Shown piece after piece: positions 1 to 11,667 of a stretch of DNA of 11,667 bases (position 1 is the stretch's first letter; each line of letters starts with the position of its first letter). A program made the position numbers and the translations under genes. Origin of the DNA: a virus. Its lineage: Duplodnaviria > Heunggongvirae > Uroviricota > Caudoviricetes. The notes beneath the pieces are model-generated. The model worked only from the letters and a program-made list of their open reading frames with translations. It was not told where the DNA came from and ran no database searches. The DNA lies in the IMG/VR virus record IMGVR_UViG_2541047721_000002; one strand, written 5' to 3'.

Positions 1-1293
<1,293 letters not shown>

Positions 1294-1335: not shown

Positions 1336-1413
1336 AAGTAGAGGTTTAATCATTTGAAAATAAATGGATTTTATTTTTAAGTGTCCATATAACGTCCATC
1401 TTTGAATGCAAAA

Positions 1414-1448
1414 AGCCCACAGCTTCTATGCTGTGGGCTTTGTTTTTT
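1414..1448 (+). terminator. rho-independent terminator downstream of serS
   Basis: AGCCCACAG-cttctatg-CTGTGGGCT 9-bp stem followed by TTGTTTTTT; preceded by an A-run so it could act in both directions. Confidence 0.6.
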
Positions 1449-1469
1449 GGTGTCCTCATGAGTGAGGGA

Positions 1470-1504
1470 ATCAAAAAGAAAACCCGCAGTTTTTACGCTG
1501 CGGG
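1470..1504 (-). terminator. rho-independent terminator for the minus-strand hok-like transcript
   Basis: CCCGCAG / CTGCGGG 7-bp stem (1483-1489 and 1498-1504) with 8-nt loop; on the minus strand the stem is followed by TTTTCTTTTTGA (complement of 1465-1482). Confidence 0.55.
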
Positions 1505-1598
1505 CTTGTTGTTCACGTCAACTGGAAATAGGGTGCCTTTTCGACCTTTACCCTGGCAACCGATTGACGGGGAAGTTGCCTTCCCCGTCGCGGTTTCC

Positions 1599-1739
1599 TT
1601 ACTGCTTACACTGTAAGAACGCCGCAAACTCCGCTCCCCAGAAACTCATCCGTATTTCACACAGCGAACCGTGCAGCATCCAGATGATGAGGATTGCCGT
1701 CACGCAGAATGTGATGGCCGTAAGCGATTTTTGCGACAT
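1599..1739 (-). CDS. Hok/Gef-family type I toxin (small membrane-depolarising peptide), 46 aa
   Basis: Not in the ORF track (too short). Minus-strand ATG at 1739 preceded by AAGGAG RBS; translation MSQKSLTAITFCVTAILIIWMLHGSLCEIRMSFWGAEFAAFLQCKQ; TAA at 1601-1599. Single N-terminal hydrophobic helix plus the Hok-family C-terminal signature SLCE(I/L)R…(E)xAAF(L/M)AC, closest in my memory to HokA-type peptides. Overlapped by a longer out-of-frame upstream ORF (mok-like) and followed by a terminator. Confidence 0.7.
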   Translation of the reverse strand: MSQKSLTAITFCVTAILIIWMLHGSLCEIRMSFWGAEFAAFLQCKQ

Positions 1740-1842
1740 AGCGCTTGCTCCTTTTTCGGGGAGGCGCTAACCTATCACTTGCTGAGGGTAGATGGTTAGG
1801 GCCTCGGGTTAACGTTAAAGTTGACTCGGGGCCTTTCCACAT
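1657..1842 (-). CDS. mok-like overlapping reading frame (translational coupling ORF of a hok locus)
   Basis: 61-aa ORF starting at ATG 1842, overlapping the 5' part of the hok-like ORF in another frame, as in canonical hok/mok/sok loci. Its sequence has no recognisable domain; the call rests on arrangement only. Confidence 0.35.
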   Translation of the reverse strand: MWKGPESTLTLTRGPNHLPSASDRLAPPRKRSKRYVAKIAYGHHILRDGNPHHLDAARFAV

Positions 1843-1930
1843 CTGGCCTTCGGGTATTCCCTCCGACCATCAGCCGAAAGGCACCCGCGCGTAATCTATC
1901 GCTTTTTTGTTACTCCGGCAATTCTGCCTG

Positions 1931-2191
1931 TTAATTCTGAGATAAAGGCAAACTCATCTGATTGTTTCCCCTGTGTGAAGCTGGCAGCTCATGCCACGGG
2001 ATACCTTCTGAAGAGTGAACGCCGGAGGCGTGTTTTGATGTGAATTTATGGAAAGCTTCCAGTGTTGAGAAGCATACGCCGCATTCCAGATTGTTACACT
2101 GGTAATACTTTTGCCGCACGGTGTTTGAATCATTTTCCGGACGACTGGTGCGGATACGGGCAGATGCGCCACAAAGCGGACAACGGAACAT
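1931..2191 (-). CDS. ogr: Ogr/Delta-family zinc-finger late-gene transcriptional activator
   Basis: 86-aa ORF, ATG at 2191 with AAGGGAGG RBS 6 nt upstream; N-terminus MFRCPLCGASARIRTSR…YYQCNNLECGVCF has the C-x2-C…C-x4-C zinc-finger layout and closely resembles P2 Ogr / 186 B (MFHCPLC…ARTSR…HQCQN…C…F). Lies immediately downstream of D on the same strand, as in P2. Confidence 0.85.
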   Translation of the reverse strand: MFRCPLCGASARIRTSRPENDSNTVRQKYYQCNNLECGVCFSTLEAFHKFTSKHASGVHSSEGIPWHELPASHRGNNQMSLPLSQN

Positions 2192-2231: not shown

Positions 2232-3341
2232 TCACTCTGTTTCCGCTATCCATTCCGGGATTTTTGCCTCAAGCTCAAGCTGCGTGGTAAAACCGCTGTT
2301 ATCAATGGTGTGCTCGGCTTTTGCAATGATCCAGTCCTGATTATCAATCTCGCTTTTAAATCCTGTTACCGTGCCATGCATTTCGGGGTAGAGTTCTGCA
2401 CGTCCACGCGCCAGCGTGATGGAGAATGATGCGGCTCCGCGTTGTAGTTGCTGCCACTTTGCCGCCGCTGCGCGTCTTGCTGCCTGCTCGTTCTGATAAG
2501 TCTTGCGTAACACAAACACATTGCCTTCCGCGCCTTCCATATAATCACCTTCGCGGCTGCTGCTTTTCTCCTTTTTGGGTTTTGGCGGTTTACGGCGTTT
2601 CACGCTGACTTTTTTCTTTTTCCCGTAATTAAGATCAAGCCAGTAAGCGCGTACCCCCGTATACGCTTCGCGGTCAGCAATGCGGAACTGATGGCGATCG
2701 CCGCTGCTGCGTGTGATGGCAAACGATGGCAACGGCTGGCCCTGTGCGTTCACGCCACCGCCGGGCATGATGAATAACAGATTACCGCTTTTTACCGTGG
2801 TGATTGCGCCCAGCATTTCCGCCATGCGCGTAAGGAAGGACATGTCGCTTTCTTCGGTCTGGTCGGCGTGGTCGATTTCGATATCCATCAGCATTTCGCT
2901 GATTTGCGGTTTCAGACCATACCGATGAGCGATGGCGGATACCACACGCTCAACGGTCACATCATGCCAGGACACCTCACGTTTAACGTTAAATTCATCC
3001 CGAAAATCTGCGCTTCTGGCTGAAACAGTCAGCCTGTCCGGCGGTCCTTCGTGAGCGATTTCATCAACAATGTAAGTGCCTTTTTCTGTCAGCGGTTCTC
3101 CTTTCCAGCCAATGAGAACCGTCAGGCGCGCGCCCCGTGGCGGTAGCTGCAACTGACCATCCGCATCATCCAGCGTGATGGTGAGCTGGTCCGCGTCAAA
3201 TCCCCGGTTGTCGGTCAGTGACAGGCTCATCAGGCGCTCTGCCACGCCTGACAGCGTTTTACCCTCCGCGAGAATATCAAAATCCGGCATTTTCACGGGG
3301 TCTGTGCCCTGACTGAGCAATTGCATGGTGGTATCGGTCAT
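2232..3341 (-). CDS. D: P2 gpD-like tail protein (tail-completion / late control D family)
   Basis: Minus-strand frame with stop at 2232. Motifs typical of P2 gpD are present (…SLSLTDNRGFDADQLTITLDDADG…, …SARSADFR…REVSWHD…, …AYTGV…, …REGDYMEGAEGNVF…, …QLQRG…FSI…GR…, …GFK…IDNQDW…NSGFTT.LELE…). I place the start at ATG 3341 (MTDTTMQLL…) because an AGGGAGG RBS lies 5-11 nt upstream; the ORF-track extension to 3473 has no RBS. Confidence 0.85.
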   Translation of the reverse strand: MTDTTMQLLSQGTDPVKMPDFDILAEGKTLSGVAERLMSLSLTDNRGFDADQLTITLDDADGQLQLPPRGARLTVLIGWKGEPLTEKGTYIVDEIAHEGPPDRLTVSARSADFRDEFNVKREVSWHDVTVERVVSAIAHRYGLKPQISEMLMDIEIDHADQTEESDMSFLTRMAEMLGAITTVKSGNLLFIMPGGGVNAQGQPLPSFAITRSSGDRHQFRIADREAYTGVRAYWLDLNYGKKKKVSVKRRKPPKPKKEKSSSREGDYMEGAEGNVFVLRKTYQNEQAARRAAAAKWQQLQRGAASFSITLARGRAELYPEMHGTVTGFKSEIDNQDWIIAKAEHTIDNSGFTTQLELEAKIPEWIAETE

Positions 3342-3498
3342 CTGTTCCCTCCCTGTGCGGCATAGTCGCATGTGCGTGCGGAGGGGGTTACTGCTTTTTG
3401 TTGTCGCCGGGTCGGGAGAACGGCGCAGGGGTGAGATTACGCGCGTGGTGGGTGATGATTGTTGCCGAATCATTTAACGGATACAAGGGGCTGAAGCT
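3342..3498. promoter_or_regulatory. divergent intergenic region between D (minus) and FI (plus); expected site of late promoter(s)
   Basis: 157-bp non-coding gap between two divergent start codons, each with a good RBS. I could not find a canonical Ogr-type TGT-N12-ACA element by eye, so promoter positions are unassigned. Confidence 0.4.
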
Positions 3499-9092: not shown

Positions 9093-9120
9093 AAACCGCT
9101 AATGGTCAGATTAGCGGTTT
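9093..9120. terminator. bidirectional hairpin between convergent U and invertase genes
   Basis: AAACCGCTAAT-ggtcag-ATTAGCGGTTT 11-bp stem followed by TCATTTTCC; the invertase stop codon (9111-9113) lies inside the stem. Confidence 0.5.
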
Positions 9121-9710
9121 TCATTTTCCTGAGTCTGCCTGGTTGTTTCTTCAGCCTGTATATCGCCTACAGGGTGATAACGATAAATCGTCGATATGCC
9201 GATGTCGTAAATGATCGCCAGTTGTTTCCTGTCATGACCGTTTTTAATCAGCCTCGCTATTTGCTCGTGTTGTTCTTTTGTCAACTTCGGGCGACGTCCG
9301 CCAATGCGTCCTTGTGCGCGTGCTGCTGCCAGCCCGGCCAGTGTACGCTCTACAATTAATTCACGTTCCATTTCGGCTAAAGCCCCCATGACGTGAAAAA
9401 AGAAACGCCCCATGGGTGTTGATGTGTCAATGCTGTCCGTCAGACTACGGAAATTAACACCTTTTTCCCGCAATTCCTCAATAAGCGTGATCAGGTGTTT
9501 CATACTTCTGCCCAGTCTGTCCAGCTTCCAGACAACCAGCGTATCTCCTTCTGATAGCGTTCTGAGCAGTTTTTTCAATCCCGGTCTGGTTGATTTCGTT
9601 CCGCTGATTTTATCTTCAAAAATCAGTTCACATCCTGCGCAGTTCAGTGCATTGCGTTGTAAATCCGTGTTCTGGTCGTTTGTTGACACACGAATATAGC
9701 CAATTTGCAT
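9111..9710 (-). CDS. serine DNA invertase, Gin/Pin/Hin/Cin family
   Basis: Minus-strand ORF. I place the start at ATG 9710 (MQIGYIRVSTNDQNTDLQRNAL…), which gives ~199 aa. The N-terminus and catalytic region (…GDTLVVWKLDRLGRSMKHLI…FRSLTDSIDTS.PMGRFFFHVMGALAEMERELI.ERT.AGLAAAR..GRIGGR.PKLT…) are nearly identical in pattern to E. coli Pin and Mu Gin, including the active-site serine in YIRVST. A C-terminal helix-turn-helix region follows. Confidence 0.93.
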   Translation of the reverse strand: MQIGYIRVSTNDQNTDLQRNALNCAGCELIFEDKISGTKSTRPGLKKLLRTLSEGDTLVVWKLDRLGRSMKHLITLIEELREKGVNFRSLTDSIDTSTPMGRFFFHVMGALAEMERELIVERTLAGLAAARAQGRIGGRRPKLTKEQHEQIARLIKNGHDRKQLAIIYDIGISTIYRYHPVGDIQAEETTRQTQENENR

Positions 9711-9764
9711 AAAAAACATCCTCTTTGTTTCGTGAAAAATACAGAGTTGGTATAGGTAGGGATA

Positions 9765-9790
9765 AAAACGAAAACGTTGGTTTAGGAGAA
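9765..9790. other. putative left crossover site of the invertible segment (gix/hix/pix-like)
   Basis: AAAACGAAAACG-TT-GGTTTAGGAGAA. The inner half-site in complement reads TTCTCCTAAACC, close to the half-site of known Gin/Hin sites (TTCCTGTAAACC / TTATCAAAAACC) as I remember them. The outer half is degenerate. The core dinucleotide falls at the V-G codons before the conserved LGEG motif. Confidence 0.45.
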
Positions 9791-10138
9791 GGCTCGGCGC
9801 TACCCGTTGGTGTGCCTGTTCCGTGGCCCACCGCCACACCGCCAGCAGGCTGGTTAAAGTGCGACGGGCGCGCCTTTACAAAAGAACAATATCCTGTTCT
9901 GGCCAGAGCCTACCCGACCCTCCGTCTTCCCGATTTACGCGGTGAGTTTATCCGTGGATGGGACGACGGGCGCAAAGTTGATACAGGACGTAAGTTGCTG
10001 TCCGCACAAGGGGCAACTATGTTATCCGCTTTTGTTGTTGATTATTCCAAACAGGTCACTACGCTAGGCTCGAGGAAAGTCGGCATGGGAGACACTATAG
10101 CAGATTACCAACCAGACGTTAGTGATGGCAACTTTTAG
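9776..10138 (+). CDS. silent alternative tail-fibre C-terminal cassette (Sv'-like), promoterless in this orientation
   Basis: Open frame …VGLGEGSALPVGVPVPWPTATPPAGWLKCDGRAFTKEQYPVLARAYPTLRLPDLRGEFIRGWDDGRKVDTGRKLLSAQG…DGNF*. The first ~70 aa are near-identical to the expressed cassette on the opposite strand and include the tail-fibre collar-type PDLRG…RGWD motif. There is no ATG or RBS; the frame begins at the crossover site. Confidence 0.6.
   Translation, partial: VGLGEGSALPVGVPVPWPTATPPAGWLKCDGRAFTKEQYPVLARAYPTLRLPDLRGEFIRGWDDGRKVDTGRKLLSAQGATMLSAFVVDYSKQVTTLGSRKVGMGDTIADYQPDVSDGNF
9818..9965. repeat. left copy of ~148-bp near-identical inverted repeat inside the invertible segment
   Basis: By manual reverse-complement alignment, 9818-9965 matches the complement of 11193-11340 with only a few mismatches, whereas flanking coding sequence drops to roughly 80% identity with synonymous differences. 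Confidence 0.7.
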
Positions 10139-10863: not shown

Positions 10864-11667
10864 CTAGACATCACTTAGCCTGTAGTACCGTTCAAACTTA
10901 CGGGTTGAACGGGTTCTCCCCGCCGTCAAGCTATTTTTGATTGCGGTAATAAGAGGGCCAGGCATAACATTGTCCGACATTTCAAAGCTTTGTTCGCCTA
11001 AAGATGTTCCATCAGGTATTCTCTTTCTGCCCTCACTAACGCCCATTTTGGTATAGGCTTTAGTGTCACCAAATCCGAATTGCGCAGAGCCGCCCGTACT
11101 GTCATCGCTGTAATAATCCAGCTCAGCTCCGCTTACGATCGTCCCCTCTTGAAATGAAAGTACCGTACGCCCGGTATCAACCTTGCGACCACCGTCCCAT
11201 CCACGGATAAACTCACCGCGCAAATCGGGAAGACGGAGGGTCGGGTAGACTCTGGCCAGAACAGGATATTGTTCTTTGGTGAACGTAGCTCCGTTGCACT
11301 GTAACCAGCCTGCTGGCGGTGTGGCAGTGGGCCACGGAACAGGTACACCAACAGGCAATGCAGAGCCTTCCCCCAAACCAAGGTAATTGAGGACATCTTT
11401 TATACTGCCCTTAGCGATAATAGCGCGACCAATAGCTGTAAGGGTTGCCAGCGCTGCGCGGTCTGCTCCGGTAAAATAAGGCAACCGATCTGCTGCAGTG
11501 GCAAGTCCTGCCAGAGCAGTGAGCGTGGCATCTGCCGGTTGTTTTCCGTTTGCCAGATCGTATGCAGCCTTGACCGCTTTCGGTGTGGCGGCCAGTATTT
11601 CAGACGTGCTGTTGGTGGCGCTACTGAGTTGAACAAGGCCTTTTCGTGCCGTAGTCGCATCCTGAGC
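10864..11667 (-). CDS. tail fibre protein, 3' portion (expressed orientation; 5' part lies beyond the right window edge)
   Basis: I translated the minus-strand frame by hand from 11667 down to TAG at 10866-10864 and it is open throughout: …SSATNSTSEILAATPKAVKAAYDLANGKQPADATLTALAGLATAADRLPYFTGADRAALATLTAIGRAIIAKGSIKDVLNYLGLGEGSALPVGVPVPWPTATPPAGWLQCNGATFTKEQYPVLARVYPTLRLPDLRGEFIRGWDGGRKVDTGR…YRLSDV*. The ORF-track start at 11484 is a TTG inside this frame, not the true start. Contains the collar-type motif shared by Mu S, P1 S and e14 StfE-type fibres. Confidence 0.85.
   Translation of the reverse strand, partial: AQDATTARKGLVQLSSATNSTSEILAATPKAVKAAYDLANGKQPADATLTALAGLATAADRLPYFTGADRAALATLTAIGRAIIAKGSIKDVLNYLGLGEGSALPVGVPVPWPTATPPAGWLQCNGATFTKEQYPVLARVYPTLRLPDLRGEFIRGWDGGRKVDTGRTVLSFQEGTIVSGAELDYYSDDSTGGSAQFGFGDTKAYTKMGVSEGRKRIPDGTSLGEQSFEMSDNVMPGPLITAIKNSLTAGRTRSTRKFERYYRLSDV
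11193..11340. repeat. right copy of ~148-bp near-identical inverted repeat
   Basis: Reverse complement of 11193-11340 aligns with 9818-9965, e.g. ACCAAAGAACAATATCCTGTTCTGGCCAGAGTCTACCCGACCCTCCGTCTTCCCGATTT versus ACAAAAGAACAATATCCTGTTCTGGCCAGAGCCTACCCGACCCTCCGTCTTCCCGATTT. Confidence 0.7.
11368..11393. other. putative right crossover site of the invertible segment (gix/hix/pix-like)
   Basis: TTCCCCCAAACC-AA-GGTAATTGAGGA. The inner half-site TTCCCCCAAACC is in inverted orientation to the left site. The core falls at the L-G codons (CTT GGT) before LGEG in the expressed fibre, in the same codon phase as the left site, so inversion would give an in-frame fusion. Confidence 0.45.

Follow-up and report, generated by a model that had tools for sequence, protein, structure and literature searches.

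A probable hok/sok-type toxin-antitoxin module at the ogr end of a P2/P88-like prophage and the variable status of mok among its relatives

Among the closest described systems are hok/mok/sok of plasmid R1 and hokW-sokW of the Stx2 prophage Sp5. In R1, translation of mok up to the hok ribosome-binding site (RBS) is mandatory for hok, and a tac/ucb switch has been described (PMC9841398). hokW-sokW is a prophage-borne type I toxin-antitoxin system, dependent on RNase III and Hfq; when the prophage is induced, it helps the cells to lyse and release phage (Takada et al. 2021, PMC8621323). This lysis assistance is the only experimental precedent for a prophage (PMC8621323). A 2026 preprint has since reported that hok is enriched in prophages, that more than 80% of Hok peptides conserve C16, T18, L30, C31, E32 and E41 and that, of 45 Hok homologs tested by arabinose induction, 42 are toxic; mok, Sok and mRNA structure were deliberately left aside (Escalera-Maurer et al., bioRxiv 10.1101/2025.08.07.668861 v2).

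The locus considered here lies in a window of 11,667 nucleotides from a virus of the Caudoviricetes (IMG/VR record IMGVR_UViG_2541047721_000002), the relevant features of which are given in Table 1. Sequence comparison shows that identity to E. coli K-12 past serS ends at ~1336, within the serS terminator, and the hok locus is placed between this junction and ogr. The ~130-bp spacer at 1337-1475 gave no match when compared with phage genomes. A preliminary description of this DNA had put the locus at a prophage-chromosome junction, a position borne out by the end of K-12 identity and by the minus-strand ogr gene. Very probably, a P2/P88-like prophage has integrated in the serS terminator and carries the hok/sok-family module as cargo at its ogr end.

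Table 1. Positions of genes and of observed or predicted RNA elements in the window
Feature	Position	Strand	Description	Basis
serS	1..1293	+	window opens with this gene	
Intrinsic terminator of hok mRNA	1470..1507	-	stem 1507..1480, then TCTTTTTGAT	10-bp stem, 6 GC pairs, T-rich tail
Full-length hok mRNA	1474..1886	-	~410 nt; 5' end inferred at G1886 (GGGUGCC...), 3' end in T-run past terminator	
fbi element	1531..1546	-	GGUCG-A-AAAGGCACCC; 3' UTR, complementary to tac	MFE; duplex energies; RNAalifold
GC-rich hairpin	1565..1590	-	just past hok stop codon	hairpin coordinates; RNAalifold
hok CDS	1599..1739	-	ATG start, 46 aa, MSQKSLTAITFCVTAILIIWMLHGSLCEIRMSFWGAEFAAFLQCKQ	Pfam PF01848; RefSeq WP_000078916.1; Hok cluster 72, peptide 72_1621
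mok-like ORF	1657..1842	-	61 codons, ATG at 1842 preceded by GAAGG	ORF list; out of frame with hok
Predicted Sok promoter	1745..1773	+	-35 TTGCTC (1745-1750), 17-nt spacer, -10 TAACCT (1768-1773)	sequence reading
Hairpin sequestering hok RBS	1748..1762	-	anti-SD CUCC (1762..1759), loop, SD GGAG (1751..1748)	MFE; RNAalifold
Predicted Sok-like RNA	1781..1845	+	~17-nt variable 5' tail, 16-bp hairpin (1798..1835), CCACAUCUG	folding; 3' end uncertain
ucb-like box	1828..1837	-	GAAAGGCCCC; alternative tac partner	truncated-RNA fold; RNAalifold
tac element	1872..1886	-	GGGUGCCUUUCGGCU; mRNA 5' end; pairs with fbi (full-length) or ucb (3'-truncated)	
Predicted hok promoter	1893..1921	-	-35 TTGCCG (1921..1916), 17-nt spacer, -10 TAGATT (1898..1893)	sequence reading
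ogr	1931..2191	-		Pfam Ogr_Delta
gpD	2232..3473	-		
Tail sheath, tail tube, tape measure and gpU genes		+	P2/P88-like prophage part of window	

The short minus-strand ORF with a strong RBS noted in the preliminary description was found as stated, the RBS being AAAGGAG with 8 nt from GGAG to ATG, and its product is a Hok/Gef-family peptide, as had been proposed. In a profile search, Pfam HOK_GEF (PF01848) scored 29.9 bits against the peptide (cutoff 22, E 4.1e-7), with residues 7-44 aligned on profile positions 5-42 of 42. The Hok signature is present, a hydrophobic N-terminal helix (ITFCVTAILIIWML) being followed by SLCEIR...AEFAAF. Residues C27, E28 and E37 are invariant in 18 subfamily members and correspond to conserved Hok positions reported in the preprint. 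The best NCBIfam match was HokA of E. coli K-12 (NF007290), with which the peptide shares the pattern ...WM..SLCE...AAFL.C...; as it scored only 34 bits where the equivalog cutoff is 89, the peptide is not a HokA orthologue. It belongs to the same family as the R1 toxin but has 46 rather than 52 residues and ends in FLQCKQ.

The locus had also been described as unannotated, which is not the case. RefSeq names the ORF 'Hok/Gef family protein' (WP_000078916.1), and the identical 46-aa peptide is catalogued as 72_1621 (plasmid LRP137) in Hok cluster 72, which also holds the Stx-phage version, 72_1589 (bioRxiv 10.1101/2025.08.07.668861 v2, Table S2). Peptide 72_1621 is reported toxic when overexpressed in E. 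coli: it was among the 45 homologs induced with arabinose and is not one of the non-toxic ones, which were only 19_179, 60_1482 and 69_1540 (bioRxiv 10.1101/2025.08.07.668861). It is clear that the locus is already known and ordinary; with its annotation, catalogue entry and reported toxicity, it has little discovery value. What the present analysis provides is a model that gives coordinates for the regulatory RNA elements of a prophage-borne Hok cluster, elements left aside by the only catalogue paper; the tac/fbi, tac/ucb and Sok predictions are additional to the preprint.

A 901-bp stretch around the locus was present at full length and with at least 99% identity in 963 of 5,426 complete E. 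coli genomes. In the P2-like phages P88, Chuche and Xuanwuvirus the locus adjoins ogr (91-94% identity), and in Stx phages a copy of 83-84% identity lies between orf66 and lom. Members of the subfamily, all of them named Hok/Gef, are found in E. coli, Shigella, E. albertii, Salmonella, Citrobacter and Klebsiella, and their loci often adjoin ogr or sit at prophage ends. The comparative set comprised 36 distinct full-length loci, drawn from phage records, GTDB genomes, IMG/VR contigs and contigs of distant members. The best 80 IMG/VR loci all encode the identical peptide, and many of their contigs end 3 nt past the ORF; they could be used to compare leaders but not 3' UTRs, and the sample is biased by their inclusion. 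In total, 82 retrieved copies have the identical peptide despite 16 synonymous polymorphic sites, in a sample picked by peptide identity; given this selection of loci, counts of synonymous versus nonsynonymous changes are circular or uninformative. Some relatives are damaged, the 5' end being replaced in L092-L094 and an insertion sequence (IS) lying in L100.

At the RNA level the order of elements is that of R1: promoter, tac, ucb, Sok-target hairpin, GAGG, RBS hairpin, hok, 3' stem-loop, fbi and terminator (PMC9841398). The Rfam model RF01794, named 'sok', aligns end to end with 1886..1726 on the minus strand (42.8 bits, E 5.3e-7). As its consensus starts with GGGUGC... and finishes at the hok AUG, RF01794 describes the hok leader. 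The leader does not reach the gathering score of 59, by which it differs from that of R1; the match is significant and the leader is a divergent member of this family. Homology among the related loci starts at the -10 region and GGGTGCC.

The minus-strand transcript from ~1886 to ~1474 can close on itself by a conserved and covarying tac/fbi pairing. The preliminary description had suggested looking for fold-back elements in a transcript of ~400 nt, and tac/fbi closure is present in the minimum free energy (MFE) structure of the 413-nt RNA (-172.6 kcal/mol, z = -6.8 versus shuffles), in which nt 1-15 (1886..1872) pair with 1546..1531 through 15 bp with one bulge. Since this bulge shifts the register between clades, per-sequence duplex energies were used in place of alignment columns. 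The tac/fbi duplex has an energy of -25.7 kcal/mol in the window and is kept in all 24 distinct combinations (-22.7 to -30.9 kcal/mol, compared with -10 to -14 for shuffled partners), an advantage over shuffles of ~12 kcal/mol. Beyond the invariant core GGGUGCCUU/AAGGCACCC, the extension of the duplex covaries, as CGGCU/GGUCG, CGGCUGA/UCAGCCG, CGAU/AUCG or CGAC/GUCG. The RNAalifold consensus of the 36 sequences has 88 pairs, 16 of them with compensatory changes, and its columns 1-7 are paired with 360-366 in every sequence.

When the last 70 nt were removed (leaving 1886..1545), the MFE structure paired nt 1-3 and 5-11 with nt 50-59, and the same fold opened nt 60-72 in the Sok-target hairpin. 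Loss of the 3' end is thus predicted in silico to let tac re-pair with the internal ucb box and expose the antisense target, as in the switch of R1 (PMC9841398). Compensatory changes in the RNAalifold consensus (UA to CG and CG to GC at columns 10/51 and 11/50) represent the same tac/ucb pairing.

Two further hairpins flank the coding region. The one that sequesters the hok RBS corresponds to RNAalifold columns 121-130 with 139-152, where changes are mostly one-sided and pair-preserving. In the one past the stop codon (columns 305-313 with 320-329), GC is replaced by CG in six sequences and by AU in four; by analogy with R1, it is likely to be the 3' protective stem-loop of the processed mRNA (PMC9841398). 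The terminator that the preliminary description placed after hok is present on the minus strand and is conserved with covariation in Salmonella-type loci, but it is separated from the stop codon by the hairpin at 1590..1565 and fbi at 1546..1531.

The predicted hok promoter begins 10 nt past the ogr stop codon, and its -10 element lies about 6-7 nt upstream of G1886 (GGGTGCC). TAGATT, TAGAAT or TAAATT is found at this fixed distance in 34 of 35 distinct upstream contexts, including contexts that are unrelated further upstream. The promoter matches the consensus at 8 of 12 positions, which is under the scan threshold, and the predicted Sok promoter on the opposite strand, likewise below it, matches at 6 of 12. 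A sigma-70 promoter scan of 1294-2000 called neither a hok nor a Sok promoter, so both are proposed from position, homology and conservation only.

The predicted Sok promoter lies at a position equivalent to that of the R1 Sok promoter. All 19 aligned variants have TAACCT or TATCCT as the -10, and 18 keep the 17-nt spacing; this conservation is inseparable from constraint on the hok strand, where the RBS hairpin lies opposite. TTGACT with an 18-nt spacer is seen in the Stx-phage copy, and TTTACT in one further variant.

Sok had been expected on the plus strand around 1790-1900. An antisense RNA is indeed predicted on that strand, but it is shorter and lies further left, starting at ~1781 with its hairpin at 1798-1835. 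Its MFE is -33.7 kcal/mol (z = -6.1), compared with -17.4 kcal/mol for the complementary strand, and in all 14 distinct variants the hairpin is steadier on the plus strand (mean -19.1 versus -13.3 kcal/mol). The plus-strand hairpin is stronger because its G-U pairs are A-C mismatches on the hok strand. P88-type loci have the inner stem swapped for a different, still self-complementary sequence, and the 5' tail is hypervariable between conserved blocks. After the hairpin, Salmonella-type loci have CUUUCGCUUUUCU; E. coli-type loci have no U-tract there. The T-run at 1894-1899 was considered as a Sok terminator and dropped, since only a 3-bp stem precedes it.

That neither a Sok promoter nor a Sok terminator is called with confidence would fit an orphan toxin, governed by mRNA folding and processing only and lacking an antisense partner. 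Against such an arrangement stand the consistently stronger plus-strand hairpin, with its G-U pairs opposite A-C mismatches, the conserved Sok -10 and spacing, and the hypervariable 5' tail between conserved blocks; moreover, the studied loci R1 hok/sok and hokW/sokW both have a Sok RNA (PMC9841398, PMC8621323). We regard an orphan toxin as extremely improbable.

With the peptide and RNA levels both in its favour, the locus is in all likelihood a hok/sok-type type I toxin-antitoxin module, and its mechanism may be sketched by analogy with R1 and, for a prophage setting, with hokW/sokW. The full-length hok mRNA would be inert and become active as its 3' end is slowly trimmed back to the hairpin at 1590..1565. 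The trimmed RNA would refold, and the short, unstable plus-strand Sok-like RNA would then pair with leader nt ~42-106, blocking the upstream mok-like start at 1842 (nt 45) and triggering RNase III cleavage. Should the supply of Sok stop and the RNA decay, Hok would be made and the inner membrane depolarised.

One step of this scheme, the role of mok, varies among relatives. The overlapping mok-like ORF of the preliminary description is real in the window, where it presumably shares the relative frame of R1 mok, but an equivalent start is found in only 62 of 102 related loci. In these 62, a start codon at the GAAGGnCnGAUGUGG site, AUG in 11 and GUG in 51, opens a mok frame that continues past the hok start; the count covers loci with enough upstream sequence, in a sample biased to copies with the identical peptide. 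In the 51 loci with GUG, a 1-nt indel within the Sok hairpin puts this adjacent codon in the mok frame, and the ORF opened by ATGTGG alone overlaps hok in 11 of 88 loci. In the other 40 of the 102 no mok-frame ORF reaches the hok start. These loci, ~40% of those sampled, include the P88, Stx-phage, Salmonella and Klebsiella types and have no ORF to the hok RBS; stop codons are present in the loop CUUAAGCAAG in P88-type and Stx-type loci, and no AUG was found at the mok-like start site in the Salmonella and Klebsiella types. A mok-like frame is thus present in the window but varies across the subfamily.

Since mok is missing in these 40 loci, translational coupling may not operate in this subfamily. 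Sok could then act by duplex formation and RNase III only, or by occupying a ribosome standby site well upstream of the hok start. The absence of an upstream AUG in the Salmonella and Klebsiella types points the same way, as does the fact that no canonical start codon follows the conserved GAGG, whose position is presumably that of the mok RBS in R1. The mok-like start in the window is instead upstream of the Sok hairpin (mRNA nt 45), not past the GAGG box as in R1. In the window and in the 62 loci, however, an AUG or GUG preceded by GAAGG opens a frame that runs past the hok start, and R1 needs translation of mok up to the hok RBS (PMC9841398). Control of this mok-independent kind is unlikely, and we are equally doubtful that the cluster-72 Hok subfamily has partly or wholly given up mok coupling. 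If the mok-less loci are active, Sok must control Hok other than by blocking mok translation, and the candidate routes are RNase III cleavage alone, a block at a standby site or a short upstream ORF that unwinds the anti-SD hairpin. The variable status of mok makes the strictness of mok coupling in the family a testable question.

The weak consensus matches of the promoters, the inconsistency of mok and the damage seen in some relatives (L092-L094, L100) could also be read as signs of a decayed, silent and no longer regulated hok relic that is annotated by homology, as is the case for several hok loci on the E. coli K-12 chromosome. All cis elements are intact in the window, however, and the exact peptide is reported as toxic (bioRxiv 10.1101/2025.08.07.668861). 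The 82 copies with identical peptide also argue against decay, weakly, as they were selected on peptide identity. A relic is therefore very unlikely, and a hok/sok-type module with its elements in place is preferred. For the prophage, as opposed to the R1 plasmid, such a module could serve prophage retention, help lysis on induction or exclude other phages.

RefSeq phage records label the 46-aa ORF 'MokW-like host killing', a label that raised the possibility of identity with hokW/sokW. The two are alike in being prophage-borne hok/sok systems, but identity is ruled out, as HokW is a different peptide with a different leader: it has 51 aa, starts with MKQQKAM and is RelF/HokD-like (PMC8621323, text and primer YO-357). 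The Stx-phage region retrieved with the cluster-72 copy does not contain the hokW leader. 'MokW-like host killing' is thus a name only, and a misleading one, which is corrected here since the Hok ORF is not HokW. In VT2-Sakai, the cluster-72 copy is a separate 46-aa ORF between orf66 and lom.

Upstream of the GAAGGCC box, the Salmonella prophage-end copies of the locus (L092-L094) carry unrelated sequence in place of the 5' leader (about 2340..2500). Owing to this replacement, tac, the 5' end of the hok mRNA, is missing from these copies, while its complementary 3' UTR element, fbi, is retained. The hok genes of L092-L094 may be deregulated or dead.

In some Salmonella enterica genomes, cluster-72 hok genes (the Hok cluster of the window peptide) occur as tandem arrays of three with a spacing of 360-570 bp (see table). 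For L098, the hok copies examined each come with a separate tac/fbi leader; the triple array of L100 is broken up by an IS transposase. 'Islets' of such hok arrays have been described in general (Escalera-Maurer et al., bioRxiv 10.1101/2025.08.07.668861).

Phage P88 (gp52; L003 747..887) and other RefSeq phage records give the 46-aa Hok ORF the name 'MokW-like host killing'. This label is misleading on two counts, since the ORF is the Hok reading frame rather than Mok, and since its product is not HokW of Stx2 prophage Sp5.

The predicted hok promoter starts 10 nt past the ogr stop codon (window 1893..1933), and the ogr-hok interval of the window is without any separating terminator. Read-through out of ogr, the late-gene activator gene, could give a 5'-extended hok RNA that is folded differently. 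On the other side of the locus, about 130 bp (window 1337..1470) separate the hok terminator from the point within the serS terminator at which identity to K-12 breaks off. This stretch gave no match in a search against the phage collection; it includes a strong bidirectional terminator hairpin (1412..1441). The insertion has cost the serS terminator its T-tract.

The gene for gpD is intact in the window (413 aa, 2232..3473), whereas in FDAARGOS_1077, the best-matching RefSeq genome, the gpD homologue is annotated as only 267 aa (L001 6933..7733) and is adjoined by a pseudogene fragment. Integrity therefore varies among prophage copies at this site. At the far end of the window, tail-collar-domain ORFs on opposite strands flank a serine recombinase. 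This part of the prophage resembles an invertible segment of the Gin/Cin/Pin type for tail fibres (host range).

Coordinates of tandem hok arrays and of recombinase and tail-collar ORFs
Feature	Location	Strand	Organism or Pfam domains
Tandem cluster-72 hok array	L098 2501..3987		Salmonella enterica
Tandem cluster-72 hok array	L099 2501..3643		Salmonella enterica
Tandem cluster-72 hok array	L100 2501..5085		Salmonella enterica
Serine recombinase, 242 aa	window 9111..9839	-	Resolvase + HTH_7
Tail-collar-domain ORF	window 9725..10138	+	
Tail-collar-domain ORF	window 10864..11484	-
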